NCBI RefSeq assembly: GCF_003945235.1 | Contig: NZ_RSDW01000001.1 | Location: forward strand, 450,001-482,000 | Source of the DNA: Edaphobacter aggregans | Lineage (GTDB): Bacteria; Acidobacteriota; Terriglobia; Terriglobales; Acidobacteriaceae | DNA: 32,000 nt | Direction: 5' to 3' | Shown here: piece after piece, positions 1,746 through 31,012 of the stretch | How the letters are laid out: each line of letters begins with the position of its first letter | Position numbering within the stretch: position 1 is the first letter of the stretch | The notes under the pieces: model-generated | Seen by the model: only the letters and a program-made list of their open reading frames with translations | What the model was told of the DNA's origin: nothing | Databases searched by the model: none | Program-made: the position numbers and the translations under genes

Positions 1746-1749
1746 GGAT

Positions 1750-2754: not shown

Positions 2755-2757
2755 GCC

Positions 2758-2973: not shown

Positions 2974-2974
2974 A

Positions 2975-3302: not shown

Positions 3303-3318
3303 TTTCTGCTGATTCCTC

Positions 3319-3519
3319 TTACTTCGAAAAGATCGAATTCCCCGGAGTCGTCTCGTCATTCGACTTGATCCGGTTCTCCGCCCGCTTGGCGCTCTGCATG
3401 GCGATGTGATCCATCTTCTCCTGCTTAGTCTTGCCGACCATCGTGGCATCAGCATTCTGCTCAATCGCCTCATGCGAAGGCCGTGCGCCTGTCTTGGTCG
3501 AATTCAGTCCTTGTGCCAT
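3319..3519 (-). CDS. Hypothetical small hydrophilic protein (66 aa)
   Basis: ATG at 3519 is preceded by GAGGTGA at about 6 nt. The terminator hairpin lies just downstream. Codons are G-ending, as in other minus-strand genes in this half. The translation is MAQGLNSTKTGARPSHEAIEQNADATMVGKTKQEKMDHIAMQSAKRAENR.... The longer track ORF 3319..3804 is an unlikely extension. Confidence 0.55.
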   Translation of the reverse strand: MAQGLNSTKTGARPSHEAIEQNADATMVGKTKQEKMDHIAMQSAKRAENRIKSNDETTPGNSIFSK

Positions 3520-3600
3520 TTGCTTCACCTCTTCATAGACAGATGGCCGCCTGAAACCCTCGGTTGCCCTTATTACAGAGTTGCTACAATCACCGTATTC

Positions 3601-4866: not shown

Positions 4867-4884
4867 GCCAAACCCTGAAAGAGC

Positions 4885-5178
4885 CTACTTGCTACCGAGA
4901 ATGTCGATCTTATTGATGTGAATCGGCTCGGCGAAAAGCTCGCTGGCCTTGGCCATCAGGGCCTTGGCAATCTCTCCGTTGAGATGCGCATCGCGGCCCG
5001 CTTCATCGTTGAAGGTGTCGAACACACTGTACTTCCCGCCACCTTCATTGAGACCGTACCATGTAACGGTGCCGGGCTCCTTCTTCGCCATCTCGGCGCC
5101 TTGCTTCAAAAAAGCTTCGACCTCGGCTTCCTTCCCCGGTTTCGCCTTCAGCGGCACATAGAGCGCTAATTTCGCCAT
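4885..5178 (-). CDS. Antibiotic-biosynthesis-monooxygenase (ABM) domain protein / putative quinol monooxygenase
   Basis: The ~97-aa product has the ferredoxin-like ABM pattern (LYVPLKAKPGKEAEVEAFL...EPGTVTWYGL...FDTFNDEAGRDAHLNG). GGAGG lies 9 nt upstream of ATG 5178. The track start at 5187 abuts the SD. Confidence 0.7.
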   Translation of the reverse strand: MAKLALYVPLKAKPGKEAEVEAFLKQGAEMAKKEPGTVTWYGLNEGGGKYSVFDTFNDEAGRDAHLNGEIAKALMAKASELFAEPIHINKIDILGSK

Positions 5179-5269
5179 TTCGTTCATCCTCCGGCTATTT
5201 GGATGCTCAAACCTGAACCGGCCTCATTCGCCTTTCTTGAAATGAGCATCAAAATCCCTGGAGGCACCT

Positions 5270-5827
5270 ATGCGCCGAGACAAACCTTCCGTCCTCCGAG
5301 GCGTCGTAACCGGAATCGCAGCCGGATTTGCCGCAACGCTCGTGATGGATCAGTTCCAGAAGTTGATGAGCGCCGGCGAAAAAGAGCTCGATAAGCAAAA
5401 AAAACTGGCCGACCAAGAATCTCCTCGGCTCATACCGCAGGAACAAGCTCAGAAAGAGCAAGACGTGGCCCATCAGGAAGGCTCCACGGAAAAGGTCGCA
5501 CGCAAAATCGCCGAAGCAACCGGAGCTACTTTGGCAGACGAGGACAAAAAGAAGGCCGGGCAGGCAGTCCATTACGCCTTTGGCACCTTGATGGGCGTGG
5601 TCTATGCAGTCTCGGCAGAACTGATCCCCGAAGTGACCACCGGCGCAGGGACGGCCTACGGCACGCTTCTCTTTCTGAGTGCGGATGAGGTTGCGGTGCC
5701 GGCGTTTCAGCTATCGCCACCGCCAACGGAGGCAGATCCGAAGGACCATCTAGAGCACTGGGCCTCCCATGTGGTCTACGGCGGGGCGTTGGAACTGACT
5801 CGCAGCCTTATACGGCGCCTGATGTGA
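5270..5827 (+). CDS. Membrane protein, DUF1440/YagU-like (tentative)
   Basis: GGAGG lies 6 nt upstream of the ATG. Hydrophobic segments (GVVTGIAAGFAATLVM and HYAFGTLMGVVYAV) flank a charged K/E/Q-rich linker. The family assignment is from memory only. Confidence 0.6.
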   Translation: MRRDKPSVLRGVVTGIAAGFAATLVMDQFQKLMSAGEKELDKQKKLADQESPRLIPQEQAQKEQDVAHQEGSTEKVARKIAEATGATLADEDKKKAGQAVHYAFGTLMGVVYAVSAELIPEVTTGAGTAYGTLLFLSADEVAVPAFQLSPPPTEADPKDHLEHWASHVVYGGALELTRSLIRRLM

Positions 5828-5891
5828 GTGCTGCACGTTGCCCCATGCAGTCGTCTACGATAGCCTGTTCTATGGAGTGATACACACCCGC

Positions 5892-6638
5892 ATGATGCTT
5901 CGTTACCTTGCATTCGCTTTAGCCTTCAGTGTTTCGGCACTCGGACAGTCGCCAGCCTCACCGTCATCCGACCAACTTCCGGATGCTCCAAGCACCACAA
6001 GCCAGGCCAAGCCGCCGGTGGCTCCAACAGGACCAACTGCTGTGATCGACACGACCATGGGGCGGTTGACCTGTAAGCTCTACGACCAGCAGGCTCCTGT
6101 AACGGTGGCCAATTTCGTAGGACTTGCTGAAGGAACTAAAGACTGGACCGACCCAAAGACTCTCAAGAAAGTCCACAACCAGCCGTACTACAACGGCACT
6201 ACGTTCCATCGAGTAATTCCGGAATTCATGATCCAGGGTGGCGACCGAATGGGCACGGGTGCCGGCGATCCGGGTTATTTTTTCCAGGATGAGATTGATC
6301 CCTCACTGACCTTCGATCAACCCGGACGTCTCGCGATGGCTAACGCCGGCCCAGGACCTTCTGGCGGCGGTACCAATGGCTCACAGTTCTTCATTACCGA
6401 AACACCGGTGCCGCAGCTAAACGGCAAGCACACCATCTTTGGCCAGTGCGATGCTCATTCTGTTTTGCTCGTGGCGTCCATCGCCCGCGTGGAGCGCAAC
6501 AGTGAAGACAAGCCCCTCACCCCGGTGGTCATCGACCGCGTGACAATCGTACGGGAGGGCCAACCCATGCCTCCGCTGCCCGCAACTCCAGCCACACCCG
6601 CCGCGACAACAGCACCGGCTGCCGCGCCCCCAAGATAA
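5892..6638 (+). CDS. Secreted cyclophilin-type peptidyl-prolyl cis-trans isomerase with Pro/Ala/Thr-rich N- and C-terminal tails
   Basis: Cyclophilin core: FHRVIPEFMIQGGD, GRLAMANAG, NGSQFFIT, LNGKHTIFGQ. Signal-like N-terminus MMLRYLAFALAFSVSALGQ. Tail ...PLPATPATPAATTAPAAAPPR. The track start at 5838 (TTG) is probably too far upstream. Confidence 0.85.
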   Translation: MMLRYLAFALAFSVSALGQSPASPSSDQLPDAPSTTSQAKPPVAPTGPTAVIDTTMGRLTCKLYDQQAPVTVANFVGLAEGTKDWTDPKTLKKVHNQPYYNGTTFHRVIPEFMIQGGDRMGTGAGDPGYFFQDEIDPSLTFDQPGRLAMANAGPGPSGGGTNGSQFFITETPVPQLNGKHTIFGQCDAHSVLLVASIARVERNSEDKPLTPVVIDRVTIVREGQPMPPLPATPATPAATTAPAAAPPR

Positions 6639-6725
6639 ATTTCCCCTGCTCTTCGCGATCTTGGCGAAGATGCTTCCTGCTCGCATCTCATAACCTGAAA
6701 TAAGCTTGTTAAGGAGAACAACGAA

Positions 6726-7247
6726 ATGGCAAAGAACCCCGGCACCTATGCAACATTCAAAACATCCGAAGGTACCATCGTCTGCGAGCTCTTCGAGAAG
6801 GACGCTCCTGAGACGGTAGCCAACTTCATTGGTCTCGCCGAAGGCACCAAGGACTGGAACAGCCGCAGCAAGAAGGGGCCGAAGCTCTACGACGGAACCA
6901 TCTTCCATCGCGTGATTCCACAGTTCATGATCCAGGGTGGGGACCCCGAAGGTACCGGCATGGGCGGCCCCGGCTACAAATTCGCCGACGAGACCCGCGG
7001 TTCGAAGCATGGATTCCAGCAGCCCGGCAAACTTGCCATGGCCAACGCCGGCCCCAACACCAACGGCTCGCAGTTCTTCATCACCGTCACCGACACCAGC
7101 TGGCTCACCGGCAAGCACACCATCTTCGGCCAGGTAACTGAGGGCTACGATATCGTCGAGAAAATCTCGAAGGTAAGCCGCGACGGCATGGACCGCCCCA
7201 AGACCCCAGTCGTCCTCGAGTCCGTAACCATCGAACGCGTAGCTTAA
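6726..7247 (+). CDS. ppiB: Cytoplasmic cyclophilin-type peptidyl-prolyl cis-trans isomerase
   Basis: AAGGAG lies 9 nt upstream. Motifs: FHRVIPQFMIQGGDP, GKLAMANAGPNTNGSQFFIT, WLTGKHTIFGQV. Confidence 0.92.
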   Translation: MAKNPGTYATFKTSEGTIVCELFEKDAPETVANFIGLAEGTKDWNSRSKKGPKLYDGTIFHRVIPQFMIQGGDPEGTGMGGPGYKFADETRGSKHGFQQPGKLAMANAGPNTNGSQFFITVTDTSWLTGKHTIFGQVTEGYDIVEKISKVSRDGMDRPKTPVVLESVTIERVA

Positions 7248-7271
7248 TCCATCTTCACAACAAAACAGAAA

Positions 7272-7295
7272 GGCCCGCTCATCCTCAAGCGGGCC
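7272..7295. terminator. Bidirectional rho-independent terminator between convergent ppiB and mdh
   Basis: GGCCCGCT-catcctca-AGCGGGCC (8-bp stem), flanked by AAA upstream and TTCTTCGTTCTT downstream. Confidence 0.7.
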
Positions 7296-7340
7296 TTCTT
7301 CGTTCTTATCGGTGAAATCTCTGCAGATCGGTGCTAAGTC

Positions 7341-8288
<948 letters not shown>

Positions 8289-8302
8289 CTACTCAAAATT
8301 TC

Positions 8303-8668
8303 TTACGACCACTTCGCAGATTCCCAGAGATAAAGCTCGTTCCCATCCGGATCATTGAAGTGAACGAAGCTACCACCTTGATCGCGCTGAACCTCACCGA
8401 CATTCTTGACGCCCAGCGACTTCAGCCTCGTCGCGGCCACCTCAATCGGTTCGTCAATGCCCAATCCGATCATGATCGACCCCAATGTTCCCGGGGCAGG
8501 ATACTTATCCGACTTCGGATGCAACCCAATCATGAAAGACCCTGCTTCAACCGAAGCCCAGTGACCCCCATAATGGCTACTCACCTTCAGTCCAAGAACG
8601 TCTCCATAGAACTTCAAAGCCGTATCCATGTTCGCTACAAAGATGGTTGCATTGCCGCCGGTAATCAT
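8303..8668 (-). CDS. VOC (glyoxalase/bleomycin-resistance/dioxygenase) family protein
   Basis: 121 aa with a typical VOC pattern (FVANMDTALKFYGDVLGL...VHFNDPDGNELYLWE). AGGAGG lies 6 nt upstream. Sits between icd and mdh on the same strand. Confidence 0.8.
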   Translation of the reverse strand: MITGGNATIFVANMDTALKFYGDVLGLKVSSHYGGHWASVEAGSFMIGLHPKSDKYPAPGTLGSIMIGLGIDEPIEVAATRLKSLGVKNVGEVQRDQGGSFVHFNDPDGNELYLWESAKWS

Positions 8669-8685
8669 CGCGAACCTCCTGCGAT

Positions 8686-10089
8686 CTACCCCATATTCTC
8701 AATCATACGGCTAGCAAACTCACTCGTCTTGGCTTTGGTCGCGCCCTCCATCTGACGCTCGAAGTCGTATGTAACAAACTTCTGCTGAATCGTCTTCTCC
8801 ATCGACGATTCAATCAACCGCGCAGCCTCGCTCCAACCCAGGAAATCGAACAGCATCACACCAGACAGAATGACCGATCCGGGATTGATGACGTCCTTAT
8901 CCGCATACTTCGGCGCGGTACCGTGCGTGGCCTCAAAGACCGCATACCCGTCGCCGATATTAGCTCCCGGAGCAATCCCAAGCCCGCCAACCTGCGCAGC
9001 AGCAGCGTCAGAGATGTAGTCACCATTCAAGTTGGTAGTAGCCAGAACGGAGTAGTCCGACGGACGAATAATGATCTGCTGAAAGATCGAATCAGCAATA
9101 CGATCATTGACCAGAATCTTCTTCTTCCACTGTCCGTTACCATGCGACGTGCCGATCGCGGCAAGTATGCTCTTGACTTCGGCAATAACCTCGTCGCCAA
9201 ACTCCTTCGGAGCAAACTCGATACCCGGCTCAATCAACGCAGCGTTCTGCTCCGGCGTCAGGCCCGGATTCTGCTCAACGTTCCCAAGAATCCAGCTCTC
9301 ACGCTCCGTAACCGTATGCTCGCGGAACTCCTGCGTGGCAACCTCATACCCCCACTCGCGGAAAGCCCCCTCAGTGAACTTCTGAATATTTCCCTTATGC
9401 ACCAGCGTCACGGTCTTGCGTCCATTGTCCAGCGCATACTGGATCGCCGCTCGCACCAGCCGCTTCGACCCGGTAATCGAAATCGGCTTCACCCCGACAC
9501 CAGAGTCCAGCCGGATCTTCTTCTTGCCGCCCTTCAACATGTCGTCGTTGACAAAGGCAATAAACTTCGCAGCCTCAGGCGTACCCTCGCGGAACTCGAT
9601 GCCTGCGTAAATATCCTCCGTATTCTCGCGGAAGATCACAACGTCAAGCTTCTCCGGATGCTTCACTGGACTCGGCACGCCGCTGTAGTACTTCACCGGA
9701 CGCACGCACTGGTAAAGATCCATCAACTGCCGCAGAGCCACATTCAGCGAACGAATTCCACCACCCACCGGCGTAGTCAGCGGCCCCTTGATGGACACCC
9801 GAAAATCAACCGTAGCCTTCACCGTATCGTCCGGCAGCCAGTTCTGCGTCTGCCGATACGACTTCTCTCCGGCCAACACCTCGTACCACTTCACCGAGCG
9901 CTTGCCACCATACGCCTTCTCAACCGCTGCATCGAACACTCGTTGTGAAGCCTTCCAAATGTCGCGGCCCGTGCCATCGCCTTCAATAAAAGGAATAATT
10001 GGATTATCGGGAACAGTGTACTTACCGTTGGCATACTGAATTCCCTGACCGTCCGTCGGGACGGTGATACCGTTGTAACTTGCCTGCAT
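8686..10089 (-). CDS. icd: NADP-dependent isocitrate dehydrogenase (homodimeric type)
   Basis: 467 aa. Segments: [87 protein letters not shown]. Confidence 0.95.
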
Positions 10090-10163
10090 GTGTGTTTGGC
10101 TCCACGTGAAGATTACGCGAAGGCTATCACCGCCACGATACGAGTGGCAACCTAAGGGTGCGC

Positions 10164-10943
10164 TTATCGAACGAGATAGTAGTCAATCGTAGAAACTACA
10201 CGCACCTTCTTCATCATGCTGGCATCCGCTTGCTGTTCCCCGCCTCCGCCCACCTCTTCGTTCGGAGTAGAAGCGCCACCAGCGTCCGCCGCGGAGATCG
10301 AAAACACCCCTTGATTCGCCGACCTGATAGCCCCCACATGACTCCCCGAATCCGCCGCAAACCGATCTGCCGCTGCCCGCGCATTCTTCGTCGCCTCAGT
10401 AATCATGTCAGGCTTCAGAGCATTGAGCCCGTTGAACCTATACCCAATTCCCTGCCCATAACCACCTCCGACGACAATCCCAGCCTGCACCAGTTCCGCC
10501 GTCTTTTGTCCTGCACGCGCAATCTTGTCCACGTCCGACGAATGCACCGTAACCGTCTGCTGCACAACATAACGCGGTCCGGTGGGATTATTGCCAAATT
10601 CATTGGCTTGTTTATCGGTCACCTGAATCTGACCGATCGTGATCTCCTGCAGCGTAATTCCCTGGTCCGCCATAAACTTCAAAACAGCATTCTTATCCGA
10701 TTCGCTCTTGGCAAAAACCTGCGGCAGATCGTTACCCGCCTCCTTGAACATCACCGGCCAGATAGCTGAGTCAGACTTCACCGTCCGCTCCACCAACCCC
10801 TTGACCGTGACATACCGGTCGGCAAGCTTGATGTCCCTGATCTGCGAACCAAGCACCCAGCCACCGATCGCCAACCCAAGCAACAGACACAGGCCAAGCA
10901 CAGTAGCAGAAGCAAATGAATGAGAAAATCGTTGGTTGTCCAA
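10164..10943 (-). CDS. SIMPL (DUF541) domain protein, N-terminally membrane-anchored
   Basis: Family call from overall pattern (...[15 protein letters not shown]...[17 protein letters not shown]...[11 protein letters not shown]). The preferred start is TTG 10943, with GGAGG 8 nt upstream. The track ATG at 11027 lies inside the glnA terminator hairpin. Confidence 0.75.
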
Positions 10944-11010
10944 AGAGATTGCCTCCGCCGAACCGACAGCAGAAGAATGCAGCAGCCTCGCTACCTTGTC
11001 AACGCCACAA

Positions 11011-11037
11011 ACAAAAAGCCCCGGCACATACCGGGGC
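11011..11037 (-). terminator. Rho-independent terminator of glnA
   Basis: The minus strand reads GCCCCGG-tatgtg-CCGGGGC followed by TTTTTGTTTG, 26 nt downstream of the glnA stop. Confidence 0.8.
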
Positions 11038-11062
11038 TCTCGTCATAAGGATTCTCCCGAAG

Positions 11063-12490
11063 CTAGAAAATATTCCAAAGCAACTGATTGTAAACATCGT
11101 GGTGGAACTGCACCTCAGGTGCCTTGACGATCGTGCCCAACAGACGCGGGCAGCGATCCGCCGAAGCCTGCTTCAGGTCGGCATAACGCCCCTTCACATC
11201 CGCACCGAGCAACTTCGTCGTCCACTCCGCCGCACGGAAATTCTCAAGAGCGGTGTAGACGTTGTCCGGCAAGTACCGTTCCGCCTGACGCAGATTCTTG
11301 ATCTTCGCCGTCTCGCCATGCAGGCCGGTCTTGAAGATCGAGTACAGCACCAGGTAAGGATTCGCATCCGGCCCAACCGAACGGACCTCAACGCGCGCCG
11401 ACTTCTCGTTGCCGATCGGAATCCGGATCATCGAGCCGCGATCCACTGCCGAAGCCTTCAGCTGGTTCGGAGCCTCAAAGTGAGGATCAAGCCGCCGATA
11501 AGCATTCACGCTGGCATTCAGCAGCAGGCAAAGATCGTTGCCATGCGTCAGAATGCGATCCGTAAACTGCCAAGCGAGCTTCGAAATCTTCTCCTCGCCC
11601 TTCGGATCCCAGAAGATGTTCTTGCCGTTCTTCGTAATCGAAACATTGGTGTGCATGCCGCTACCGTTGACGCCGACAACCGGCTTCGGCAGGAAGCTCG
11701 CCGTCATGCCCATCTGCGTAGCAACCTGACGGCAGATCAGCTTGTACAACTGAATCTGGTCGGCAGCAGCAACCACTTCACCATAGCTGTAGTTGATCTC
11801 GAACTGCGAAGGCGCAACCTCAGGATGGTCCTTCTCGTTTTCGAAGCCCATCGCCCGCTGAACCTCAGCCGTCGTATCGATGAACTCACGCAGCGGATCG
11901 CCCGGCAGCGAGTGATAGTAGCCGCCCTTGTTGACATACTCGAACGCACCCGTCTCATGGTAGCGGCGCTCAGCATCGATACCCTCAAACAGGAATCCTT
12001 CAATCTCGTTGGCTGCGTTCAGCGTATAACCCTGGGTCTTATAGAGCTCCGTAGAGAGCTCTTTCAAAACGCCGCGAATGTCCGCGCTATACGTGGTGCC
12101 GTTCTTATCGATCACCTCGCCGAACACCATCACCTTGCCTGCGCCAAACACGTCAGCCGGAACCCAGTAGAACGCGCTCCAGTCGATGCCCAACCGCAGA
12201 TCGCTCTCACGCTGCGCGGTAAAGCCACGGATCGACGAGCCGTCGAACGTTAGGTTGTCATAGCTCTTGACCAGGAACTTCTTGTCGTAATCGAGCATGT
12301 GCAGGCGGCCTTCAAGATCGCTGAACAGCACGGTAACGGCCTTAATCCGCTTCTCGTCGGTCAGGTACTTCAGGCGCTCTTCCTGAATCACATCGGCGGC
12401 GACGCGCTTCTTGCGCTGCTCTTTGGCCTGCAGGTTCAGGTCTTCCAGCTCTGCGTACGGAAGTTCCAGAAATTCACGAAATTCGCTCAA
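11063..12490 (-). CDS. glnA: Glutamine synthetase (GlnA family, type I-like; no obvious adenylylation Tyr motif)
   Basis: Motifs: FDGSSIRGF, EVAPSQFEINY, GSGMHTNVS, NAYRRLDPHFEAP, DRGSMIRIP, EVRSVGPDANPYL. TTG start at 12490 with AGGAG 7 nt upstream. Confidence 0.9.
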   Translation of the reverse strand: MSEFREFLELPYAELEDLNLQAKEQRKKRVAADVIQEERLKYLTDEKRIKAVTVLFSDLEGRLHMLDYDKKFLVKSYDNLTFDGSSIRGFTAQRESDLRLGIDWSAFYWVPADVFGAGKVMVFGEVIDKNGTTYSADIRGVLKELSTELYKTQGYTLNAANEIEGFLFEGIDAERRYHETGAFEYVNKGGYYHSLPGDPLREFIDTTAEVQRAMGFENEKDHPEVAPSQFEINYSYGEVVAAADQIQLYKLICRQVATQMGMTASFLPKPVVGVNGSGMHTNVSITKNGKNIFWDPKGEEKISKLAWQFTDRILTHGNDLCLLLNASVNAYRRLDPHFEAPNQLKASAVDRGSMIRIPIGNEKSARVEVRSVGPDANPYLVLYSIFKTGLHGETAKIKNLRQAERYLPDNVYTALENFRAAEWTTKLLGADVKGRYADLKQASADRCPRLLGTIVKAPEVQFHHDVYNQLLWNIF

Positions 12491-12885
12491 CGTATTGCTC
12501 CTTCTGCAATGAAATACACGGCTACCGCAACGGCTGGGACAAGATAATTTTCAGGTGAGTTGAAGAGGGCCCGCCCGACGCTGCGCCAGACGGCTCTACA
12601 CCTCAAAACTAACAGAAATTCGCACACGAAAAAAGCAATATCCCTCAATTTTCGCCGCAAACCGTCGTCCTATCCCACAACCGTCAAATCTCTGCCGTAA
12701 CCAGGTCAGTGTCGAGACGAACTTTCACCATGGGAAAGGAGGCGTCACATCTGTTTCAAGCTAGCTTTACTTCGCCGATTTCTTTGTTGCGCTCGCCTTA
12801 GGCTTGCCTCCTGTTAAGTTTCAGCAAGAAGCGCCATGCGCCACGTTGTCATAACGGTCCAGCCTATAAAATAAACAGGATTGCC

Positions 12886-13845
12886 ATGGCTAAAAACTCG
12901 ACCAAACGCGTCGCCCTCATCCAGATGTCCTGTGCTCCGGACACCCAGCTCAACCTAGACAAGGCCGCCGAGCGCGTCTACGAAGCCGCCGCCCAGGGAG
13001 CAACCCTCGTCTGCCTCCCCGAGCTCTTCCGCGCCCAATACTTCTGCCAGCGCGAAGACCACGCCCTCTTCGACCTCGCCGAGCCCATCCCGGGCCCCTC
13101 GACCGACGTCCTCACCCGCGTCTGTTGCGAAACCGGCGTCGTCCTCGTAGCCTCCCTCTTCGAGCGCCGCGCCCCCGGCCTCTACCACAACACCGCCGTC
13201 ACCATCGAAAAGGACGGCCGCATCGCCGACATCTACCGCAAGATGCACATCCCCGACGACCCTCTCTACTACGAGAAGTTCTACTTCACCCCCGGCGATC
13301 TCGGCTTCAAATCCACGCAAACCACGCAAGGCCCCATCGGCACTCTCGTCTGCTGGGACCAGTGGTACCCCGAAGGCGCCCGCCTCACCGCCCTCCGCGG
13401 CGCCGAAGTCCTCTTCTTCCCCACCGCCATCGGCTGGCACCCCTCCGAAAAAGAAGAGTACGGGAGCGCCCAATACGAAGCCTGGCAGACCGCCCAGCGC
13501 GCCCACGCCATCGCCAACGGAGTCTTCGTCTGCGCCGTCAACCGCGTAGGCCACGAGCACGGCGACGTCAAATTCAAAGCCCCCGCCGCCGACGGCAACC
13601 CCGCAACAGTCGAACTCCGCGGCCCCGGCGACCACACCCCCCACTCCGGCATCGAATTCTGGGGCGGAAGCTTCATAGCCGACCCCTTCGGCCGCATCAT
13701 CGCCCTGGCCAGCCATGACAAAGAAGAGATCCTCTACGCCGACCTCGACCCCAAGCTCATCGAAGTCACCCGCCAGCACTGGCCCTTCCTACGCGACCGC
13801 CGCATCGACGCCTACGAAGGCATAGCCAAACGCTTTCTCGATTAG
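12886..13845 (+). CDS. aguB: Carbon-nitrogen hydrolase (nitrilase superfamily), N-carbamoylputrescine amidase-like
   Basis: Catalytic context: LVCLPELF (Glu), YRKMHIPD (Lys), GTLVCWDQWYPE (Cys). AguB-like overall, with an extra insert DVKFKAPAADGNPATVELRGPGDHTPHS. The symbol is tentative. Confidence 0.8.
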   Translation: MAKNSTKRVALIQMSCAPDTQLNLDKAAERVYEAAAQGATLVCLPELFRAQYFCQREDHALFDLAEPIPGPSTDVLTRVCCETGVVLVASLFERRAPGLYHNTAVTIEKDGRIADIYRKMHIPDDPLYYEKFYFTPGDLGFKSTQTTQGPIGTLVCWDQWYPEGARLTALRGAEVLFFPTAIGWHPSEKEEYGSAQYEAWQTAQRAHAIANGVFVCAVNRVGHEHGDVKFKAPAADGNPATVELRGPGDHTPHSGIEFWGGSFIADPFGRIIALASHDKEEILYADLDPKLIEVTRQHWPFLRDRRIDAYEGIAKRFLD

Positions 13846-13887
13846 CTAGCTGCTAAGTGAGCTTTTAGTGCCAGACCCATACAAAAC

Positions 13888-14151
13888 ATGCATGCCACAG
13901 GACGAGCGTCTGTGCCATGCACGTTTGTATCCTTGTCTATTAGATTCCTCACGTACAATTGCGCGGTGCGAGATAAGACTTTCCACCTCTTACAGCCGAT
14001 AATGACATCCTGCGCCATCATTGCGGTCATCTTTGGTCTGATGGTTCCAAGGTTAGTAAAAGACACTTCTACCCGGAAAGCCATCATCATGGTGATATCT
14101 ATCGGAGGTGGCAGCGCCTATCTCTTTGCGCGCCGTAAATATCTAAGTTAA
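13888..14151 (+). CDS. Hypothetical small membrane protein (possibly only the 49-aa version starting at ATG 14002)
   Basis: Low-GC ORF with two hydrophobic stretches (CAIIAVIFGLMV and AIIMVISIGGGSAYLF) and a basic tail ARRKYLS. Its stop codon abuts repeat R1. No SD and no homology that I recognise. Confidence 0.25.
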   Translation: MHATGRASVPCTFVSLSIRFLTYNCAVRDKTFHLLQPIMTSCAIIAVIFGLMVPRLVKDTSTRKAIIMVISIGGGSAYLFARRKYLS

Positions 14152-14241
14152 GCCGGGTGCCCGATTCATGCAGTCTCATCGCATGAGTGGGACATTCGCT
14201 CGAAAGCGAACAGTTTCCCTAAGCCTGCGACATAGTTCGTG
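14152..14241. repeat. Interspersed ~90-nt repeat, copy R1
   Basis: gccgggtgcccgattcatgcagtctcatcgcatgagtgggacattcgctcgaaagcgaacagtttccctaagcc... aligns with R2 (14371-14462) along its whole length and with R0 (2975-3064) at the conserved flanks. Confidence 0.7.
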
Positions 14242-14370
14242 GCGCTCATCTTGAGCGCGCATGATCGCGCGAAGGTGGGGATGTATCTACTTTGGAGCGG
14301 GAAACGAACCGCCTAGCCTAAACCAATCCAACCTCACGCTCCGCCTGTCTCCCCCAAAAACGCAAACTGA

Positions 14371-14462
14371 GCGGGTGCCCGTTCGTGCACTCTCATCGCC
14401 TGAGTAACATTCGCTCAACGCACGAATAGCCTTCCCTAAATCACACCCGAAACAGTTCGGAT
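14371..14462. repeat. Interspersed ~90-nt repeat, copy R2 (direct orientation relative to R1, about 220 bp apart)
   Basis: gcgggtgcccgttcgtgcactctcatcgcctgagtaacattcgctcaacgcacgaatagccttccctaaatc...gaaacagttcgg aligns with R1. Confidence 0.7.
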
Positions 14463-14787
14463 GCCCATCATCACTAAGGGTAGGCATCAGCGTCAGGGCC
14501 ACAAAACCTGTCAAGCCCTAATTCCACCTAAACCACATAAAATCATACACATCCACCTGGCCGAGTAATTCCCCCAGCTAGTTATACTTAAACAAGTAGA
14601 AGTAAGGAAGGCCATATTCAGAACAGATTTTTCTCCTTTGCAATGAATACTTTACGCAAGACCCATCGACTCAAGTAACTGATTGTAGATACTTTACCTA
14701 CTTTAACCCAGGGGTAAGTATACCGAAACGGACGGGTCGAGAATCATCCATCATCAGGGGTCTCAGGAAGAGAGCGAAAGCGACACG

Positions 14788-15735
14788 TCATCCTTGAGTG
14801 GATGCGTAGGACGCAGTTTGGTAGTGGGAGCCGGTGGTCATGAGGTTCTCTATTTCTTCCAGAGCTTGAATGCCACCTCGTGCTCCTATGGCGGTGCAGT
14901 TGAGGGCAGCGGCGGCGCAGGCGAAGTCGAGCTGGCGATCGAGGGACCAGTCCTGAAGGAGTCCGTAGATGAAGCCAGCGTGGAAGATGTCGCCGGCTCC
15001 GGTGGTATCGAGCACGGGAACGTGGTAGGCGGGGGTATGGAGGAGCTGGTTGCCATCCCAGGCGAGGACGCCGTCATGGCCAAGGGTTGCAGCGGCAAGG
15101 CGGCTTCCGTAGCGGCGGTGCATCTGGCGCAGGGCCTGTTCCAGGTCAGCCTCATGCATGAGGCGTGTGGGAAAATCGCGGCTGACAATGAGGTAGTCAA
15201 CGTTGGCGAGGAGGTCTTCGACGCCAGGATAGAGTTCGTCGAGATCGGCGATGACTGGGACTCCAGCAGCTCGTGCCCAGGCGGAGGCCGTAATGGCGGC
15301 CTCGGTGTCGAAGCCGTCAACGTGAAGGGCGCGGGCGTTGACGATCCATTCGCGGTCGAGCTCGGCGGGGCGGAGAGTCAGGCGTTCGTCTCGGCGGCAC
15401 AGGACGGTGCGCTCGCCTTCGGCATCGACGAGGATGAGGGACTGGGCGCTAGCTCCGCCGGGGACGGTAATAATGCGGGTTTCGACGCCCGCGTGGGTGA
15501 AGGCTTCGCGATGGAGGGTCGCAGCGAGGTCGTCGCCGAGTTTGCCGACGTAGCGGGTGCGCATGCCCCAATGCTGGCAGGCGACGACGGTGGTCGCGAC
15601 TTGTCCGCCGGGTAGGGTGCTGACGGCGGAGTATTCGGTCTTGGAGCCGCGGGTGGGGTATGTGGAGAGAGGGATAACGGTGTCTGTTGCGTTCAGTCCG
15701 ACGCCGACAAGGTCAACCTTCGACGCTTTCGCCAT
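14788..15735 (-). CDS. PfkB-family carbohydrate kinase (ribokinase/ketohexokinase-like)
   Basis: N-terminal VGVGLNATD and C-terminal DTTGAGDIFHAGFIYG (the PfkB signature), then AAAALNCTAIGARGG. I cannot determine substrate specificity. Confidence 0.85.
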   Translation of the reverse strand: MAKASKVDLVGVGLNATDTVIPLSTYPTRGSKTEYSAVSTLPGGQVATTVVACQHWGMRTRYVGKLGDDLAATLHREAFTHAGVETRIITVPGGASAQSLILVDAEGERTVLCRRDERLTLRPAELDREWIVNARALHVDGFDTEAAITASAWARAAGVPVIADLDELYPGVEDLLANVDYLIVSRDFPTRLMHEADLEQALRQMHRRYGSRLAAATLGHDGVLAWDGNQLLHTPAYHVPVLDTTGAGDIFHAGFIYGLLQDWSLDRQLDFACAAAALNCTAIGARGGIQALEEIENLMTTGSHYQTASYASTQG

Positions 15736-15794
15736 GGTTTTACTGTAAATGAATTGGAAGTGTCTTGCGGGTCCGTGGTGGCGGATTGGACGGG

Positions 15795-16535
15795 TTATGC
15801 CTCACCCAGTCGTTCGGCTATGGCGGGGAGGGCTTGGGTGGCTGTGCTGAGGATGACTTCGTCAAAGGCATCGATGTTTTGCGGCTCCTCGGGCCCCACG
15901 TAAACGGTTCGGATGCCTCGCTGGTTGGCTAAATGCACGAAACCGGCGGCGGGATAGACAGAGCCGGAGGTGCCTATGACGAGGAGAATGTTAGCGCGGT
16001 CCAGTTCGCGGTAGATGGCGTCCATGTCGAGAGGGATTTCGCCAAACCAGACGATGTGCGGGCGTACGGTGGCGTGGCAGGTCTTGCAGACGGGAAGATC
16101 ATTGGGGTCTTCGTAGAGCGCGTGGTCGGAGAAGTGCTCGTTGGAGCGGGTGCAGCGGGATTGGAAGAGACTGCCGTGCATGTGGTGGATGCGACGAGAA
16201 CCAGCACGCTCATGGAGGTCGTCTACGTTTTGGGTGCAGAGGTAGAAGTTGTCTGAGTTGATTGTGGCGAGGTGTTGCTCGATTTGGGCCAGAGCTTTGT
16301 GAGCTGCATTGGGCTGTGCTGCGAGAGCATCGCGGCGACGCTGGGAATAGAAGCGCCAGACGAGGGCAGGGTCGGCTTGCCACGCTTCGTAGGTGGCCAC
16401 TTCTTCGACGCGATGGCCATCCCAGAGGCCTCCGCTGCCGCGGAAGGTGGCGAGGCCGCTTTCCGCGGAGATGCCCGCTCCGGTTAGGACGAAAAGACGG
16501 TCTTGGAGAGAGAGGTGCATGAGTTGTCTCTTCAT
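15795..16535 (-). CDS. cobB: NAD-dependent protein deacylase, Sir2 family
   Basis: Motifs: LTGAGISAESGLATFRG, TQNVDDLHERAG, HMHGS, zinc-site cysteines C..C (CTRS...CKTC), VWFGE, GTSGSVYPAA. The start is either ATG 16535 or 16520. The track start at 16625 is an unlikely extension. Confidence 0.9.
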   Translation of the reverse strand: MKRQLMHLSLQDRLFVLTGAGISAESGLATFRGSGGLWDGHRVEEVATYEAWQADPALVWRFYSQRRRDALAAQPNAAHKALAQIEQHLATINSDNFYLCTQNVDDLHERAGSRRIHHMHGSLFQSRCTRSNEHFSDHALYEDPNDLPVCKTCHATVRPHIVWFGEIPLDMDAIYRELDRANILLVIGTSGSVYPAAGFVHLANQRGIRTVYVGPEEPQNIDAFDEVILSTATQALPAIAERLGEA

Positions 16536-16934
16536 TCTAATGATGGATTTTTGAAGAGAACAATCACATGGGCCTATTTCGATCAAACGGCAGATTCCTA
16601 CGCTGCGCTGCGGAAATGGCAGCAAGCAACGGCGAGGGATAACGCGAATTTCCCGTATTGCAAATGCGACTCGGTGACGGCGATTCTCCCAAAAACCGGA
16701 AGCGGGCGGTGTCGTCGATATCGGAGTCTAAGGGGACGGCGTTGGGATCGTGGTCGGGTACAGCGACAAATTGATCGCGGAGACGCGAGCGATTCGAGAG
16801 CCGAAGCCTCCGGGGAGGCTTGCTGAAGCACCGTTTTCGAGAGTGCCCTTGAGACCGGAGAGATCGGCATAGGAGCCAACACGGCTGTCGGTGCGACGCC
16901 AAGCTTTTTACCGCGATATCTGGGGCCCCACTGC

Positions 16935-16961
16935 GCCACTCACGATGAAACTGTGAGTGGC
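16935..16961 (-). terminator. Stem-loop downstream of eno (possible terminator, no U-tract)
   Basis: GCCACTCAC-9 nt-GTGAGTGGC (perfect 9-bp stem), about 55 nt after the eno stop. It is not followed by a T-run on the minus strand. Confidence 0.3.
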
Positions 16962-17016
16962 TTCGGTCGGAATGACGTGGTTTTGCGGTGGTAGCCGGTT
17001 TGGGTTGACTGAGCTA

Positions 17017-18588
<1,572 letters not shown>

Positions 18589-18680
18589 TTAGGCGGGCGG
18601 CTACCCTTTTAGCAGAGATTCGAGCGCGCTTAGTTTGGGACTCGTGTCTGGATTTCCAGTTCTTGATTGAGGGTGTTGCC

Positions 18681-19604
18681 ATGAAGGTACAAATCGCTGC
18701 TGCTGCTTTTGTTCTTGGATCTGTTCCCGCGCTGGCTCAGATGACGGGAGTTTCGCATCCCGATCCTGCGGTGATTACGACGACCGATGAATCGACTACG
18801 CCTGCTGCTCCGGCTAGTGATGCCACGACGCGACGACCTTTGAACGCGAAGCCCGCGGCGGGAACTCCTGCGACTGCCCCTGCGTCTACGAGCGAGGTTT
18901 ATGGATCTTTTGTGCCGTATACGGGGCCTCTGCTGAAAACGCCTGTGGCTTCGAGCGCGACTGCGGTTGTCGATGACCCTGATGGTCAGATTGTTACGAG
19001 TGTTCCTGAGCGTGAAGGTGAGTTGCGTGAGGGCACGCTGCTTCGGGTGAATATCAAGGAAGGCATTTCGACTGCGAACACGATGCCGGGGGCGAAGTTC
19101 ACGGCTGAGATTGTCGAGGCCGTGTCGAAGGATGGCCGCGTGATTATTCCTGTTGGGGCGATCCTCGATGGGCAGGTGACGGAGGTACGGAGTGGGCGGC
19201 GTGTTCTGGGGGGAGCGGCGCTGCATCTGGAGCCGCGGAGTATCACGCTGCCGGATGGGACTCATTATGTTGTTCACGCGCAGTTGATTGATGCCAGCCG
19301 GGGGAACTTCAATGTGGACTACGAAGGGACGTTGAAGTCGAAGGACCAGATGAAGAAGGCGCTTGCGGTGATGACGCTGACGACGGGCGGCGGCGCTGCT
19401 ACGGGTGCGGTGCTTGGAGGGGGCGTGGGTGCGCTGGTGGGCGCGGGTGTCGGGGCTGGCATCAGCACGTTTATGTGGCTGAAGTCGGATCGGCAGGCTA
19501 CGCTGGATAAGGATGATCGGCTGGTGTTTAGTTTGACTACGCCGATGATTTTGACGCCGATTAGTGATGCGGCGGTTGGGCCTGTGGGTGGGGCAGCGCA
19601 GTAA
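18681..19604 (+). CDS. Secreted hypothetical protein with a Pro/Thr/Ala-rich linker, a beta-rich central domain and a C-terminal glycine-zipper segment
   Basis: Signal peptide MKVQIAAAAFVLGSVPALAQ. GAGGG lies 8 nt upstream of ATG 18681. Glycine zipper: TTGGGAATGAVLGGGVGALVGAGVGAG. A terminator follows downstream. Confidence 0.75.
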   Translation: MKVQIAAAAFVLGSVPALAQMTGVSHPDPAVITTTDESTTPAAPASDATTRRPLNAKPAAGTPATAPASTSEVYGSFVPYTGPLLKTPVASSATAVVDDPDGQIVTSVPEREGELREGTLLRVNIKEGISTANTMPGAKFTAEIVEAVSKDGRVIIPVGAILDGQVTEVRSGRRVLGGAALHLEPRSITLPDGTHYVVHAQLIDASRGNFNVDYEGTLKSKDQMKKALAVMTLTTGGGAATGAVLGGGVGALVGAGVGAGISTFMWLKSDRQATLDKDDRLVFSLTTPMILTPISDAAVGPVGGAAQ

Positions 19605-19627
19605 AGTACGGCCAGTGATGTGGAGAG

Positions 19628-19660
19628 GGGCGGCTCTTGGATGAGCCGCCCTTTTCTTTG
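19628..19660 (+). terminator. Rho-independent terminator of the 18681-19604 gene
   Basis: GGGCGGCTC-ttggat-GAGCCGCCC (9-bp stem) followed by TTTTCTTTG. Confidence 0.8.
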
Positions 19661-19665
19661 CGGTC

Positions 19666-22173
19666 TTAGTCACGGACCTGAGCCAGGAGGCGCTTCCAGT
19701 TTTTTTGGTTGCGGCGGTAGCTTTTTTTAAGGTCTTCAAGGATGCGCTCGAAGTCGGCATGGCCGCTCATGTTGCGCCAGGCTGGATTTTTGCTGAACCA
19801 CGGGTAGTTTTCGTTGCCGAGGTAGATGGCGCGACGGAGCCAATGCAGGGCTTCAGACTCGTCGCCTTCAAGGGCGAAGTAGGTGGCAAGACGGTAGGCC
19901 ATCTCGCTGTCGGCTTCGGCGGCGGAGAGGGTCTCATCGACGATGAAGGTGGCGGCTTTTTCGCGCTCGCCGAGCTGGACGTAGCAGAGGGCGATGGTCG
20001 GGAAGACGATGCGGAGAGATTTCTCGTCGCGGATGACGTTTTCGAGGGTCTCGATGGCTTTAGGGAGATCGCCGGTGCGCATCTGCTGGTAGCCGAGAGA
20101 GATGCGGAGGAGAGGCTGGCGGGGTTCTAGGGTGAGGCCTTTTTCGATCTCGTCGGCGGCGAGTTCCATCTGGTTCTGGTACTGGTAGACGCGGGCGCGG
20201 TGGTTGTAAATCATAGCCGCGTTAGAGGGGTTCATGCGCAGGGATGCGTTGAACTGCTCGAGGGCTTCTTCATACATGCCGTCAATGCGGAGGGTTATGC
20301 CGGCGACCATGCGAACGTTCCAATCGTTGCCGGCGGTCTGGAGGAGGTTTTCGATGCCGTGGCGGGCAGACTCTTTTTCGCCGCGCGAGAGGAGCATGTA
20401 GACGCGGTAGAGATTGGCTTCGACGGAGCCGGGGTCTAGTTGGAGGGACTTGTCGAAGGCGCGGCGGGCTTCGAGGACATGCATCTGGCCTCCGAGGCCG
20501 TGGCGGGTGTATTGCAGGTGCGTGATGCCGAGGCCGGACCAGCCGGGGGCGTAGTTGTCGTTCTGCTTGACGACGGACTCGAAGAGTTCGCGGGCGCGGT
20601 CGAGGTCGTCGCGGCTGCCGGTGCGGGTCATAAACGAGGAGAGGGTGGCCCGGGCCTGGAGATACTCCTCAGAGAGGTCTTCGCTGAGTGAGGGGGAGAG
20701 TGCGGCTGCGCGATTGTTTTCGTGCAGGCCCTGGAGATCGCCGAAGCCCTGGAGGGTGCTGAAGACTTCGTTGCAGATCTCGGTCTGGACGGAGACCAGA
20801 TCGAAAGAGGCTACGTTGATGGAGCCTCCGGCGCGGACGCTTTGGGTGGAGACGTCGAGGAGCTGCCAGTTGAGGTCAAAGCCTTTGTCGGAGCGGAGGA
20901 AGTTACCGGCGAGGACAAAGTTGACGAGGAGTTTTTTGCCGATGCTGAGGGGATCGAGTTGCTGGGTGGCGACGGTCATCAGCGAGCTTGATGGGCGGAC
21001 TACGAGCGATGGCATGCGGGCGAGACGTGCAGCGATGGCATCGGCGAGGGCGTAGCCGTAGAGAGGGGCTACGTCGGCGGGGCCGTAGTTGATGAAGGGG
21101 AGGACGACGATGCTGTCGCTTTGTTTGCTTGCTGCGCTGGTGCCGGATTCGCGAAAGCGTTCGGCAAGCATGGAGAGGATGCCGGTGGTGCGTTTTTCTT
21201 CTTCGGGGGTTTCGAGAGCGAGGCGGCCTTGTGAAGGGAGCAGCGTGAGAGATTCGCCGCCGGGCATGAGGGCGGAGTCGAGCTGCATGGAGCGCATGAT
21301 GGTCTTGAGGGACTCGCGAACGTCTGCGGCGGAGGAGAAGCGGGCGGAGGGCTGCTTTTCGAGGCAGCGAAGGATAACGCTCTCGAGCTCGACGGGAAGG
21401 TGTGGGGCGATCTCGCGGATGGAGGGCGGGTCGGCGAACTGGATGGCGCGGATGGACTGGAAGTCGGGTGCGTCGGGGCGGTGGAACGGGTGGCGGCCGG
21501 TGGCGAGCTCGTAGAGGATGAGGCCGAGGGCGAAGATGTCGGACTGGACGCTGGATTGGCCGGTGACGAACTGCTCGGGAGCCATGTAGGCGATGGTGCC
21601 GCCGCGGGCGGTGTAGGTGGCTCCCGGGGCGGGCATGGCGCGCTTGCTGGCGGGGCCGGAGGGGTCGAAGTCGGCCTGGTCGAGGGCGAGGCGACGGGCG
21701 AGGCCGAAGTCGAGGATCTTGATGAGGCCGCCGTCGGTGAGCATGACGTTGGCTGGCTTGAGGTCGCGGTGGAAGATGCCGAGGGAGTGGGCGGCGGAGA
21801 GACCGTCGGAGATCTGGATGCCGGCGGAGAGGACGAGCTGCAGGCTGGAGGGGCCCTCGGCGATGAGCTTGTCGAGGGACTTGCCGGGGATGTACTGCAT
21901 GACGATGTAGGCTTCTTCGGAGTCGCCGGATTCGGCTGGGGCTTCGCCGACGTCGTAGATGGCGCAGACGTTGGGATGGTCGATGGCGGAGGCGAGACGG
22001 GCCTCGCGGAGCTGGGTGGCGCGCATCTGCTCGATGGTGAGGTTGCCGCGCTTTAGGAGCTTGAGCACGACGGGGCGCTGGAGGAGCGTGTCGTTGGCGA
22101 GATATACGACGCCGCTGCCGCCGGTGCCGATCTTACGGATGAACTCGTATTGCTTGATTACGCGCCGCTTCAT
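19666..22173 (-). CDS. Ser/Thr protein kinase with a central TolB-N-like region and C-terminal TPR repeats
   Basis: Hanks kinase motifs: GTGGSGVVY, VVLKLL, HRDLKPANVM, DFGLA, APEQ. Then ...VVLPFINYGPADVAPLYGYALADAIAARL... followed by repeated TPR-like units to the C-terminus. Confidence 0.9.
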   Translation of the reverse strand: MKRRVIKQYEFIRKIGTGGSGVVYLANDTLLQRPVVLKLLKRGNLTIEQMRATQLREARLASAIDHPNVCAIYDVGEAPAESGDSEEAYIVMQYIPGKSLDKLIAEGPSSLQLVLSAGIQISDGLSAAHSLGIFHRDLKPANVMLTDGGLIKILDFGLARRLALDQADFDPSGPASKRAMPAPGATYTARGGTIAYMAPEQFVTGQSSVQSDIFALGLILYELATGRHPFHRPDAPDFQSIRAIQFADPPSIREIAPHLPVELESVILRCLEKQPSARFSSAADVRESLKTIMRSMQLDSALMPGGESLTLLPSQGRLALETPEEEKRTTGILSMLAERFRESGTSAASKQSDSIVVLPFINYGPADVAPLYGYALADAIAARLARMPSLVVRPSSSLMTVATQQLDPLSIGKKLLVNFVLAGNFLRSDKGFDLNWQLLDVSTQSVRAGGSINVASFDLVSVQTEICNEVFSTLQGFGDLQGLHENNRAAALSPSLSEDLSEEYLQARATLSSFMTRTGSRDDLDRARELFESVVKQNDNYAPGWSGLGITHLQYTRHGLGGQMHVLEARRAFDKSLQLDPGSVEANLYRVYMLLSRGEKESARHGIENLLQTAGNDWNVRMVAGITLRIDGMYEEALEQFNASLRMNPSNAAMIYNHRARVYQYQNQMELAADEIEKGLTLEPRQPLLRISLGYQQMRTGDLPKAIETLENVIRDEKSLRIVFPTIALCYVQLGEREKAATFIVDETLSAAEADSEMAYRLATYFALEGDESEALHWLRRAIYLGNENYPWFSKNPAWRNMSGHADFERILEDLKKSYRRNQKNWKRLLAQVRD

Positions 22174-22252
22174 GATTTCATTATTGCAAGGGCGGGCGTG
22201 GGAAAGATGATTGCGGAGTTATTTGCGTTGGAGGCTGGTTTCGAAGGGGGAA

Positions 22253-22879
22253 TCAACGGCAATGAATCGACTGGATGATCGCGTTGATCTGCGGCTGTGT
22301 GATGGATGCGGACGAGGTCTTGTCGCTCCGGATCCAGAGTTCGATCCGTCGATCCTGTGGATCGAAGAGGTCTAGCTTGACCTTAATCGGAATATTCGGC
22401 GCATCACCTTCTTGAAAACCGCGCATTTCGCCGAAATGAAGCTCATAGAGCGAACCTTCCATCAAAGTTATCTTTTGGCCTAGGAGAAGCATGGTGCGGA
22501 CGTTGTGCTCCCTGGTTGCGAAGATGCTTGCGTCTTGGGGACGGGTATAGGCCGCAGCGCGCATGAAATTGAATTTAGAGGCGAGATTCTCTGCGCCGAT
22601 CAACTGCACGACTTTTTTGCCATTAGGATCGCGCTCAGCCGATTCGCGATAGATTTTGGCTGTATCTGGTTGAAACTCCGGAGCAGAGAACATTACCCAA
22701 GTCTTGTCTGCAAGGGACCTCACCGCAACCATCCGGCCGTCACGATCCTTCTCCACATTGGTCCAAGGAAGCTGGGCGGTGCAGCCGAACCTCTGCCAGG
22801 TTGAGCCGCTGAGAACGGCGATATGGGTGTCAGGGAGCTGTTTAGGAATGTTGCGCAATTGCGGCGAATTGCGCATCAC
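22253..22879 (-). CDS. Hypothetical protein (208 aa), no recognisable domain
   Basis: Long ORF with a GTG/ATG start at 22879/22876. GC is lower and codon endings are mixed, unlike the C-ending minus-strand neighbours. No signal peptide in the called frame. Confidence 0.5.
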   Translation of the reverse strand: MMRNSPQLRNIPKQLPDTHIAVLSGSTWQRFGCTAQLPWTNVEKDRDGRMVAVRSLADKTWVMFSAPEFQPDTAKIYRESAERDPNGKKVVQLIGAENLASKFNFMRAAAYTRPQDASIFATREHNVRTMLLLGQKITLMEGSLYELHFGEMRGFQEGDAPNIPIKVKLDLFDPQDRRIELWIRSDKTSSASITQPQINAIIQSIHCR

Positions 22880-23009
22880 ACTACGGACAAAATACCAAGT
22901 GGAGAGATTAAGAGCCTCGTAGCCGGCGAGAAAGATGAGACAAAGGCAGAATTGAGATGGCGATGATGGGCCTGAGCCAACTGCGATGGATAAAGGGCAT
23001 GGTTGAAGG

Positions 23010-23261
23010 TTAGTGTCGGGGACCTGCGCCTTTTTCCCATGGGCGGGGATTGACGGGGTCGTCTTGCCACTTTTGGCGGCGGCCTACTAGGTACATGACT
23101 AGGCCGAAGACGAACATGATCGCGCCCCAGGTCAGGTTGATGTTGATATCCATCGACTTCTCGTAGATGGCGGAGTGGCGGGTGAAGAAGCCGTAGATGC
23201 TGATGATGCCGCCGGTGATCAGGAAGATGAGGCCGAGGGGGATGCGGATGTCGAGTCCCAT
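23010..23261 (-). CDS. Small two-TM membrane protein (83 aa) downstream of the symporter
   Basis: AAAGGAA lies 7 nt upstream of ATG 23261. TM segments: IPLGLIFLITGGIISIYGFF and LTWGAIMFVFGLVMYLVG. Codons are C-ending like the neighbours. The track ORF start at 23336 is an extension. Confidence 0.65.
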   Translation of the reverse strand: MGLDIRIPLGLIFLITGGIISIYGFFTRHSAIYEKSMDININLTWGAIMFVFGLVMYLVGRRQKWQDDPVNPRPWEKGAGPRH

Positions 23262-23379
23262 GTTTGTTTCCTTTCTGGCTCGGGCGGCGAAACGTACCTC
23301 AGGGGCTAAAGCCCCCTTGTGCCCGGATGTTGTCACGGCACGGCTGAAGCCATGCCCTTAAGCACGCGAAAGCAGGTCG

Positions 23380-25179: not shown

Positions 25180-25472
25180 CCTTGGTAGAACATTGGATTG
25201 GGAGTACTTCGGCCAACTCTAAACCGTTTGTTCAGCTCAGTCCAGCGTTTCGGACCAATGAGAAAGGATGTTCGAGATTTTTTCAATGGGGAAAGAAAAC
25301 CCGAAATGATTGGTTCTGCATCGAATGGGTAGTTGTGAACAGGACTTACGTGCAGTAGAACTTGAACGAGCCTTTCTCAGACCAGTCACCGTCGCAGGCT
25401 TCTGTGGCGAACGTGAAAAGGTCTGAATGAAGTACTTGCAGGGTTTTCTTCTCCTTGGAGCTGTCAACGCTG

Positions 25473-31011: not shown

Positions 31012-31012
31012 C

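Follow-up and report, generated by a model that had tools for sequence, protein, structure and literature searches.

An origin-like GC-skew switch between aguB and pfkB in Edaphobacter aggregans is probably a rearrangement junction

When the top strand of a bacterial chromosome turns, within a few hundred nucleotides, from C-rich to G-rich, is one looking at the place from which replication forks depart, or at the scar of a chromosome that was broken and rejoined? The question is raised by a stretch of 32,000 nucleotides, hereafter the window, which forms part of a 6,152,256-bp contig of Edaphobacter aggregans and over which (32 kb) skew was computed. A preliminary description of this DNA, made from its letters alone, had reported an abrupt switch of this kind inside a 0.94-kb non-coding gap between convergent genes, and had pointed out that its polarity was that of a replication origin. 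The polarity argument is right: a passage from C-rich to G-rich on one strand is an origin-type sign change. The location is right too, in that the 0.94-kb gap houses the switch, but 'non-coding' is too strong a word for a gap with small ORFs inside it, the longest of which (13888-14151) could encode 87 aa. The compositional domains, the two genes that face each other across the gap and a set of overlapping reading frames that will concern us briefly are as follows.

1-13845, both coding strands: left domain, with a C-rich top strand (skew -0.20)
12886-13845, + strand: aguB-like CN-hydrolase of the N-carbamoylputrescine amidase family (TIGR03381 at E=5e-84, below the curated cut-off)
14788-15735, - strand: intact PfkB-family sugar kinase (family scan; protein identical to RSL14946.1)
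14788-32000, both coding strands: right domain, with a G-rich top strand (skew +0.245)
17092-18426, 10916-12253, 8923-9948 and 23917-25008, + strand: antisense shadow ORFs, taken from the ORF list

Over positions 1-13845 the top strand holds 3174 G and 4753 C, a GC skew of -0.199, and over 14788-32000 it holds 6329 G and 3839 C, a GC skew of +0.245; the contrast in G and C between the two sides has a chi-square of 880 (p ~2e-193), and the gap between them (13846-14787) stands at -0.118 with a GC content of 49%. The sign never wavers within a domain, GC skew being negative in 27/27 of the 500-nt windows on the left and positive in 34/34 on the right. Within the 32-kb window the minimum of cumulative skew and the best two-segment change point coincide at 14709-14710, near the right end of the gap. 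AT skew reverses as well, from +0.08 on the left to -0.11 on the right, and the amplitude of the skew is kept for at least 14 kb leftward and at least 17 kb rightward of the switch. The windowed and cumulative curves therefore bear out the abrupt C-rich to G-rich switch that had been noticed by eye. The accompanying claim that codon usage splits in the same way regardless of coding strand is equally well founded: taken gene by gene, top-strand GC3 skew is negative in 12/13 genes on the left (that of DUF1440 being about 0) and positive in 14/14 on the right, whichever strand is coding.

The strand asymmetry itself is unusually strong, with domain GC skews of 0.20-0.25 and per-gene top-strand GC3 skews of up to 0.6-0.7. 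When the window was compared with loci L001-L004, L010-L017, L042, L081, L082 and L091, close relatives (Edaphobacter- and Granulicella-like) were found at skews of 0.14-0.30 and many other Acidobacteriaceae MAG loci at about 0. The excerpted description of SkewDB gives ~2.5% as a typical skew (PMC8941118), and a survey from 2015 placed the Acidobacteria among the low-bias phyla (PMC4613354). Opposite eno, glnA, icd and the symporter gene the antisense strand holds very long 'shadow' ORFs (341-445 aa); they arise from codon usage that is both skewed and rich in GC, they can mislead gene callers, and one gene in L081 seems to have been assigned to the wrong strand.

Family scans of the main ORFs in the window agree with the gene names first proposed for them. 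The left domain carries sdhA, sdhB, an M19 dipeptidase, two PPIases, mdh, icd, a SIMPL gene, glnA and the aguB-like gene (hereafter aguB), which closes the left block. The right domain opens with pfkB and continues through cobB, eno, a Ser/Thr kinase with TPR repeats, an SSF symporter, a response regulator, ccmF, ccmH and htpX. Several of the proteins are identical to GenBank entries from E. aggregans (mdh RSL14939, icd RSL14941, pfkB RSL14946, ccmF RSL14955, htpX RSL14959), and the numbers on either side of the gap, RSL14946 for pfkB and presumably RSL14944 for aguB, suggest one annotated CDS between the two. The window's aguB is 90% identical to that of E. aggregans DSM 19364, the closest genome in the species-representative collection.

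How the two blocks came to be neighbours is best approached from their relatives, beginning with the left. Many Acidobacteriaceae loci have mdh, icd, glnA and aguB in this same order, and in L001-L003, L010 and L042 the left block is syntenic as far as the aguB stop codon, near which DNA homology ends. What follows aguB elsewhere is aguA (agmatine deiminase), with both genes read in one direction. This holds for about 70 of 80 genome loci, a set that extends to the Nitrospirales and other phyla, and for most of the metagenome loci that include enough DNA upstream of aguA. In none of the compared relatives do pfkB, cobB or eno lie within 10 kb 3' of aguB. The closest relatives in which the aguB-aguA pair is intact are two metagenome loci, L102 (aguB 96% identical) and L097 (95%). 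In relatives (L001, L003 and others) the skew stays negative for at least 10 kb beyond aguB. Among the loci that could be checked, sequence comparison indicates that the pair is broken here only in this lineage: aguB and, as set out below, the leader of aguA are all that remain at the locus, and the aguA coding sequence is absent from it. The cluster members listed include neither an aguA nor a DUF4159 protein of this genome, an absence that fits loss or disruption.

Skew also changes elsewhere in the surroundings of this pair. In L002 (16500-20915), beyond purB and some 8-10 kb past aguB, it shifts gradually from -0.25 to +0.28; in L135 (1-3000) it passes from +0.08 to -0.30 at the start of aguA; and in L174 (10000-21000) it moves from -0.2 to about +0.1. 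The aguB/aguA neighbourhood may be rearrangement-prone in several lineages.

The right flank can be followed in the same manner. In L081 and L082, whose PfkB is 94-95% identical to that of the window, pfkB is followed by a convergent DUF4159 gene, iPGM, recR, ybaB and dnaX. In L091 (PfkB 85% identical) the order response regulator-symporter-kinase-eno-cobB-pfkB is conserved, different genes come after pfkB, and iPGM is again found about 10 kb off. Because the state downstream of pfkB varies among relatives in this way, it is uncertain what lay to its right in the ancestor. Skew is uniform through pfkB and 10 kb beyond it in L081, L082 and L091, and the relatives compared have no skew switch at the same site, skew being uniform over 10 kb or more beyond both aguB and pfkB. 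In these relatives aguB lies on the + strand with negative skew (L001-L004 and others), and pfkB likewise lies on the + strand with negative skew (L081, L082, L091); in the window, pfkB is on the - strand and the skew there is positive. A comparison of synteny around aguB and pfkB, which had been proposed together with the original observation, finds both adjacencies to be lineage-specific here.

The DNA of the gap locates the join more closely. Read from left to right, its features are these.

13846-14469, unstranded: spacer 3' of aguB in the strain's own version, with a small ORF and two hairpin-forming repeat copies
13888-14151, + strand: small ORF of 87 aa, the longest in the gap, with a hydrophobic C-terminal half
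14144-14222, unstranded: repeat copy 1, hairpin fold of -23.4 kcal/mol
14370-14446, unstranded: repeat copy 2, hairpin fold of -17.7 kcal/mol
14476-14715, + strand: aguA leader remnant, aligning over ~240 bp to the region directly 5' of aguA in L097 and L102
14498-14600, + strand: promoter-like module CTGTCAAGCCC ... GCCGAGTAATT ... TATACTT, inside the aguA leader remnant
14647-14655 and 14689-14697, unstranded: two copies of the motif ATACTTTAC, 42 bp apart
14716-14787, unstranded: breakpoint interval of 72 bp, in which the aguA leader fades, with the pfkB stop codon immediately beyond it

The leader has counterparts in L097 and L102, with alignment z-scores of 22 and 18 respectively; in each case this is the best match in the whole locus, and the alignment is collinear, spanning the promoter-like module and both ATACTTTAC motifs. 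A first profile of the DNA upstream of aguA had been dominated by the 3' end of aguB and a second, too divergent, gave no match, but pairwise alignment to the closest relatives worked. Through the leader alignment, the start codon that aguA has in L097 and L102 projects to about 14780. From the other side, PfkB keeps a conserved C-terminus (..SYASTQG*), and the match to L081, L082 and L091 goes no further than the stop codon, 14788. Since the leader runs up to approximately its start codon and homology from the right ends at the pfkB stop, the junction is one between aguA leader and pfkB stop, within 14716-14787. Synteny thus ends from both sides at the sign change: homology on the left extends to ~14715-14780, homology on the right begins at 14788, and the skew minimum, at 14709, lies within what is left of the leader, 7 bp short of the breakpoint interval. 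The larger alignable blocks of the gap have counterparts at non-switch sites in relatives.

The leader remnant also carries what may be regulatory DNA. The module has the general form CTGTCAAGCCC-N35-40-GCCGAkTAATT-N~12-TATACTT, and occurs 5' of aguA in L001 (13374), L086 (9808 and 13465), L096 (2491), L151, L097 (8352-8617) and L102 (9666-9928), 5' of glnA in L101 (8486-8375, - strand) and 5' of an unrelated ORF in L081 (12404), a distribution in which it may be part of a nitrogen-metabolism regulon. The window's copy is an orphan aimed into the 3' end of pfkB, where it could drive antisense transcription. We considered whether the module at 14498-14600 might instead be a relative of the copy found near pfkB in L081, and rejected this assignment: the L081 copy is oriented oppositely relative to pfkB, and the alignment to the aguA leaders of L097 and L102 is the highest-scoring and most significant. 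The ATACTTTAC motif is kept in those two leaders as CAATACTTTGC and GAATACTTTACCTG, and is therefore probably the operator of a regulator; in the sister strain L083 this candidate operator occurs four times (11043-11122), including a perfect palindrome, AATACTTTACggGTAAAGTATT.

To the left of the leader, the two repeat copies are ~80% identical to each other and belong to an element of GGGTGCCCG... type. Copy 1 matches the same site 3' of aguB in L097, L102, L136 and L142 at 91-98%, and no dispersed copies were seen in the compared loci, in which matches fell only at this syntenic spot. There are, then, two copies, as originally described, but in these loci they are not interspersed; nor is the suggestion of a repeat-mediated event supported, given that copy 1 is ancestral 3' of aguB and that both copies end 270 bp or more before the breakpoint interval. 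In L083-L085 the spacer is replaced by a 178-aa ORF. The 87-aa ORF at 13888-14151 has no Pfam match, Rfam gave nothing real, whether the window was scanned at the gathering threshold or the gap at E values as high as 1, a tRNA/tmRNA search of the window found none, and a scan of the gap for sigma-70 promoters returned zero sites. Weak terminator-like hairpins in the gap number 3, against 1.1 expected.

Three readings other than a simple rearrangement have to be weighed, and the first of them, that the junction is an assembly chimera of the isolate genome, is disposed of by other assemblies. The gap does contain repeats, and a break in skew is a recognised symptom of misassembly (PMC7717575). 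The aguB-gap-pfkB arrangement is, however, found in three metagenome contigs from three different samples, L083 (on the 133-kb contig Ga0209060_10000218 from JGI 3300027826, which continues for about 105 kb past the genes at the right of the window), L084 and L085 (the other sources being JGI 3300005533 and ENA ERZ27279679), which join aguB and pfkB identically. Their flanks are 97-98.7% identical to the window, 98.7% on the left and 97% across pfkB and cobB, and they carry the same skew switch; the assembly join that had been offered as an alternative is thereby refuted, and its chance is negligible. The second reading, which the preliminary description raised, takes the gap for a functional chromosomal origin, from which forks leaving in both directions maintain the opposite skews. 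It draws on a sign change of the proper polarity, held at full amplitude over the distances given above, on a skew minimum placed in a non-coding stretch with a repeated 9-mer and a GC content of only 39% (over 14501-14700), and on substitution fluxes that are mirror-symmetric on both sides after coding-strand matching. Yet dnaA and dnaN are missing from the 32 kb, as had been objected from the beginning, and family scans of the main ORFs found no other replication gene in the window either. Linkage of dnaA and dnaN to origins is usual, not universal. A tblastn search with E. coli DnaA (an approximate query) gave no match in the window or the compared loci. When DnaA boxes were sought as TTATCCACA and close variants, the gap had none at up to one mismatch, while 4 lie elsewhere in the window, and allowing a second mismatch revealed no enrichment: boxes with two mismatches number 3 in the gap against ~1.5 expected, and 50 in the whole window against 48.9 in shuffles.

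Comparison with relatives bears still more heavily on an origin at this site. The junction is derived, and relatives show uniform skew across both flanks; the AT-rich stretch and the two 9-mers belong to the aguA leader, which in L097 and L102 occupies sites that have no switch; the promoter-like module is present at several other loci; and the 633 strain-specific bp are missing from L083, which nevertheless has the same switch. An origin here would, moreover, need two separate events, each ending exactly at it. With a junction that is lineage-specific on both sides, no enrichment of DnaA boxes and a minimum that is the leader of a missing gene, we consider an origin improbable. There is similarly a slender chance of a functional origin, poor in DnaA boxes or lacking them and remote from dnaA, that was made or captured when a rearrangement joined two replichore starts; if an origin did sit at the leader of the lost gene, unwinding would be a role newly taken on by the conserved ATACTTTAC repeats and the AT-rich leader. 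The same three lines of evidence (a break of synteny on both sides, no DnaA-box enrichment, an aguA leader at the minimum) favour the breakpoint of a large inversion or recombination event, which had first been listed as an alternative, and the switch is very probably a lineage-specific rearrangement junction of some kind. Disruption of the GC-skew plot is a recognised signature of inversions and translocations in the excerpted accounts of SkewIT and SkewDB (PMC7717575, PMC8941118). The third reading concerns the route by which the junction arose, which may have been something other than a simple two-break inversion: a block brought unflipped from the other replichore, successive events, or import by recombination of a segment already rearranged. 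In its favour, no reciprocal junction appeared among the contigs searched, a DUF4159 protein 93% identical to that of L082 occurs in yet another context on one contig, which points to a rearrangement-prone neighbourhood, and identity between the window and L083 is 98.7% up to ~16.8 kb but 91-92% thereafter, a sign of recombination close by. Such routes add steps that have no positive evidence, whereas a single inversion covers both adjacencies, the gene orientations and the skew signs in one event, and we regard them, jointly and in each of the forms named, as unlikely though deserving of some weight.

The best explanation overall is probably that the switch is a lineage-specific junction joining blocks of opposite strand composition, with one within-replichore inversion as its simplest history. 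Under this explanation the two blocks would have acquired their opposite replication-strand compositions elsewhere and been joined afterwards. In the ancestor, aguB and pfkB would both have lain on the C-rich strand of one replichore, in the order ... glnA< aguB> leader / aguA> ... eno> cobB> pfkB> / downstream DNA, where arrowheads give orientation and slashes the points of breakage. Inversion of the segment from the aguA start to the pfkB stop would yield aguB> leader / <pfkB <cobB <eno, and the inverted block would retain its old composition, leaving its top strand now G-rich. Because one inversion accounts for both broken adjacencies, for the orientations and for the signs of the skew, it is the simplest history. 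An inversion spanning the origin or terminus gives no switch at its ends, and a deletion joining opposite replichores removes the origin; the event should therefore have been a within-replichore inversion or an equivalent inverted transfer. We infer a single event in preference to a translocation or multiple steps, and with it the size of the moved segment and a block that would now run against replication. As a history of the junction, the single inversion is the most economical account, and its prospects are somewhat better than even. The reciprocal junction, in which the body of aguA would stand beside DNA formerly downstream of pfkB, was not found among aguA and DUF4159 homologues, the clusters listed, a metagenome scan and the contigs examined, these searches giving only ancestral arrangements or unrelated contexts. 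Near the one junction inspected there is no inverted repeat, IS element or transposase able to mediate an inversion.

The comparison with L083 shows a mosaic of its own. Identity to the window is 98.7% left of ~16.7 kb and 90.8-92.5% right of 16.9 kb, with a 231-bp indel between cobB and eno (16704-16934), and the 633-bp segment at 13837-14469 is replaced in L083 by the 178-aa ORF; this pattern suggests a recombination boundary near the junction. Across pfkB and cobB the window and L083 differ at only 6-7 sites, and the event may therefore be very recent.

Polarised substitution fluxes were used with the aim of finding which side, if either, is out of compositional equilibrium. The raw polarised counts for the right side had G lost 245 times and gained 53 times. 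Control pairs of relatives with the ancestral arrangement showed the same bias towards loss of G, however, and star-tree and coding-strand-matched fluxes showed no difference between the two sides, so that the apparent G loss on the right is rejected as an artefact of parsimony and GC-to-AT change. Equal fluxes are compatible with a very recent event, and equally with an origin. The GC3 skew of the right-hand genes is slightly lower than that of their orthologues in L081 and L082, and was likewise set aside as a signal of disequilibrium, the difference being within the variation among lineages.

What appears to be a rearrangement scar is thus able to present itself as a full-amplitude, textbook switch in an AT-rich non-coding gap, and this locus is a caution for the prediction of origins from skew alone. 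A real, confirmed block of 'wrong' composition could serve as a natural experiment on the rate at which skew re-equilibrates and on the tolerance of head-on genes such as eno, a value it would owe to the unusually strong strand asymmetry of the clade (GC3 skew up to 0.7). The event would also have separated aguB from aguA, a pair conserved across phyla, and left an orphan promoter-like module facing the 3' end of pfkB.

Set beside known systems, the gap resembles a bacterial oriC in the polarity of its switch, in its non-coding position and in its local AT-rich stretch with a repeated short motif. A bacterial oriC has a cluster of DnaA boxes and an AT-rich unwinding element at the skew minimum; the gap has no such cluster and no linkage to dnaA or dnaN, its site is not conserved in relatives, and its AT-rich stretch is homologous to a gene leader that is found at non-switch sites. 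Compared with the aguBA pair for the conversion of agmatine to putrescine, which in relatives has aguA on the strand of aguB behind a conserved leader, the window keeps only aguB and the leader. A further likeness is to the breakpoints described in the excerpted SkewIT and SkewDB papers, although the case differs from inversions of that type in being known from one junction, its partner breakpoint not having been seen, and in its skew amplitude of 0.20-0.25, which is roughly ten times the typical value in the SkewDB excerpt (PMC8941118). It differs, too, from the E. coli O121 example given in the SkewIT excerpt (PMC7717575), which is an assembly error, in that other assemblies here confirm a real rearrangement. 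What it shares with those breakpoints is the same abrupt, full-amplitude flip, at a site that is probably neither origin nor terminus, coupled to a break in synteny, in which the moved block keeps its composition (PMC7717575, PMC8941118).
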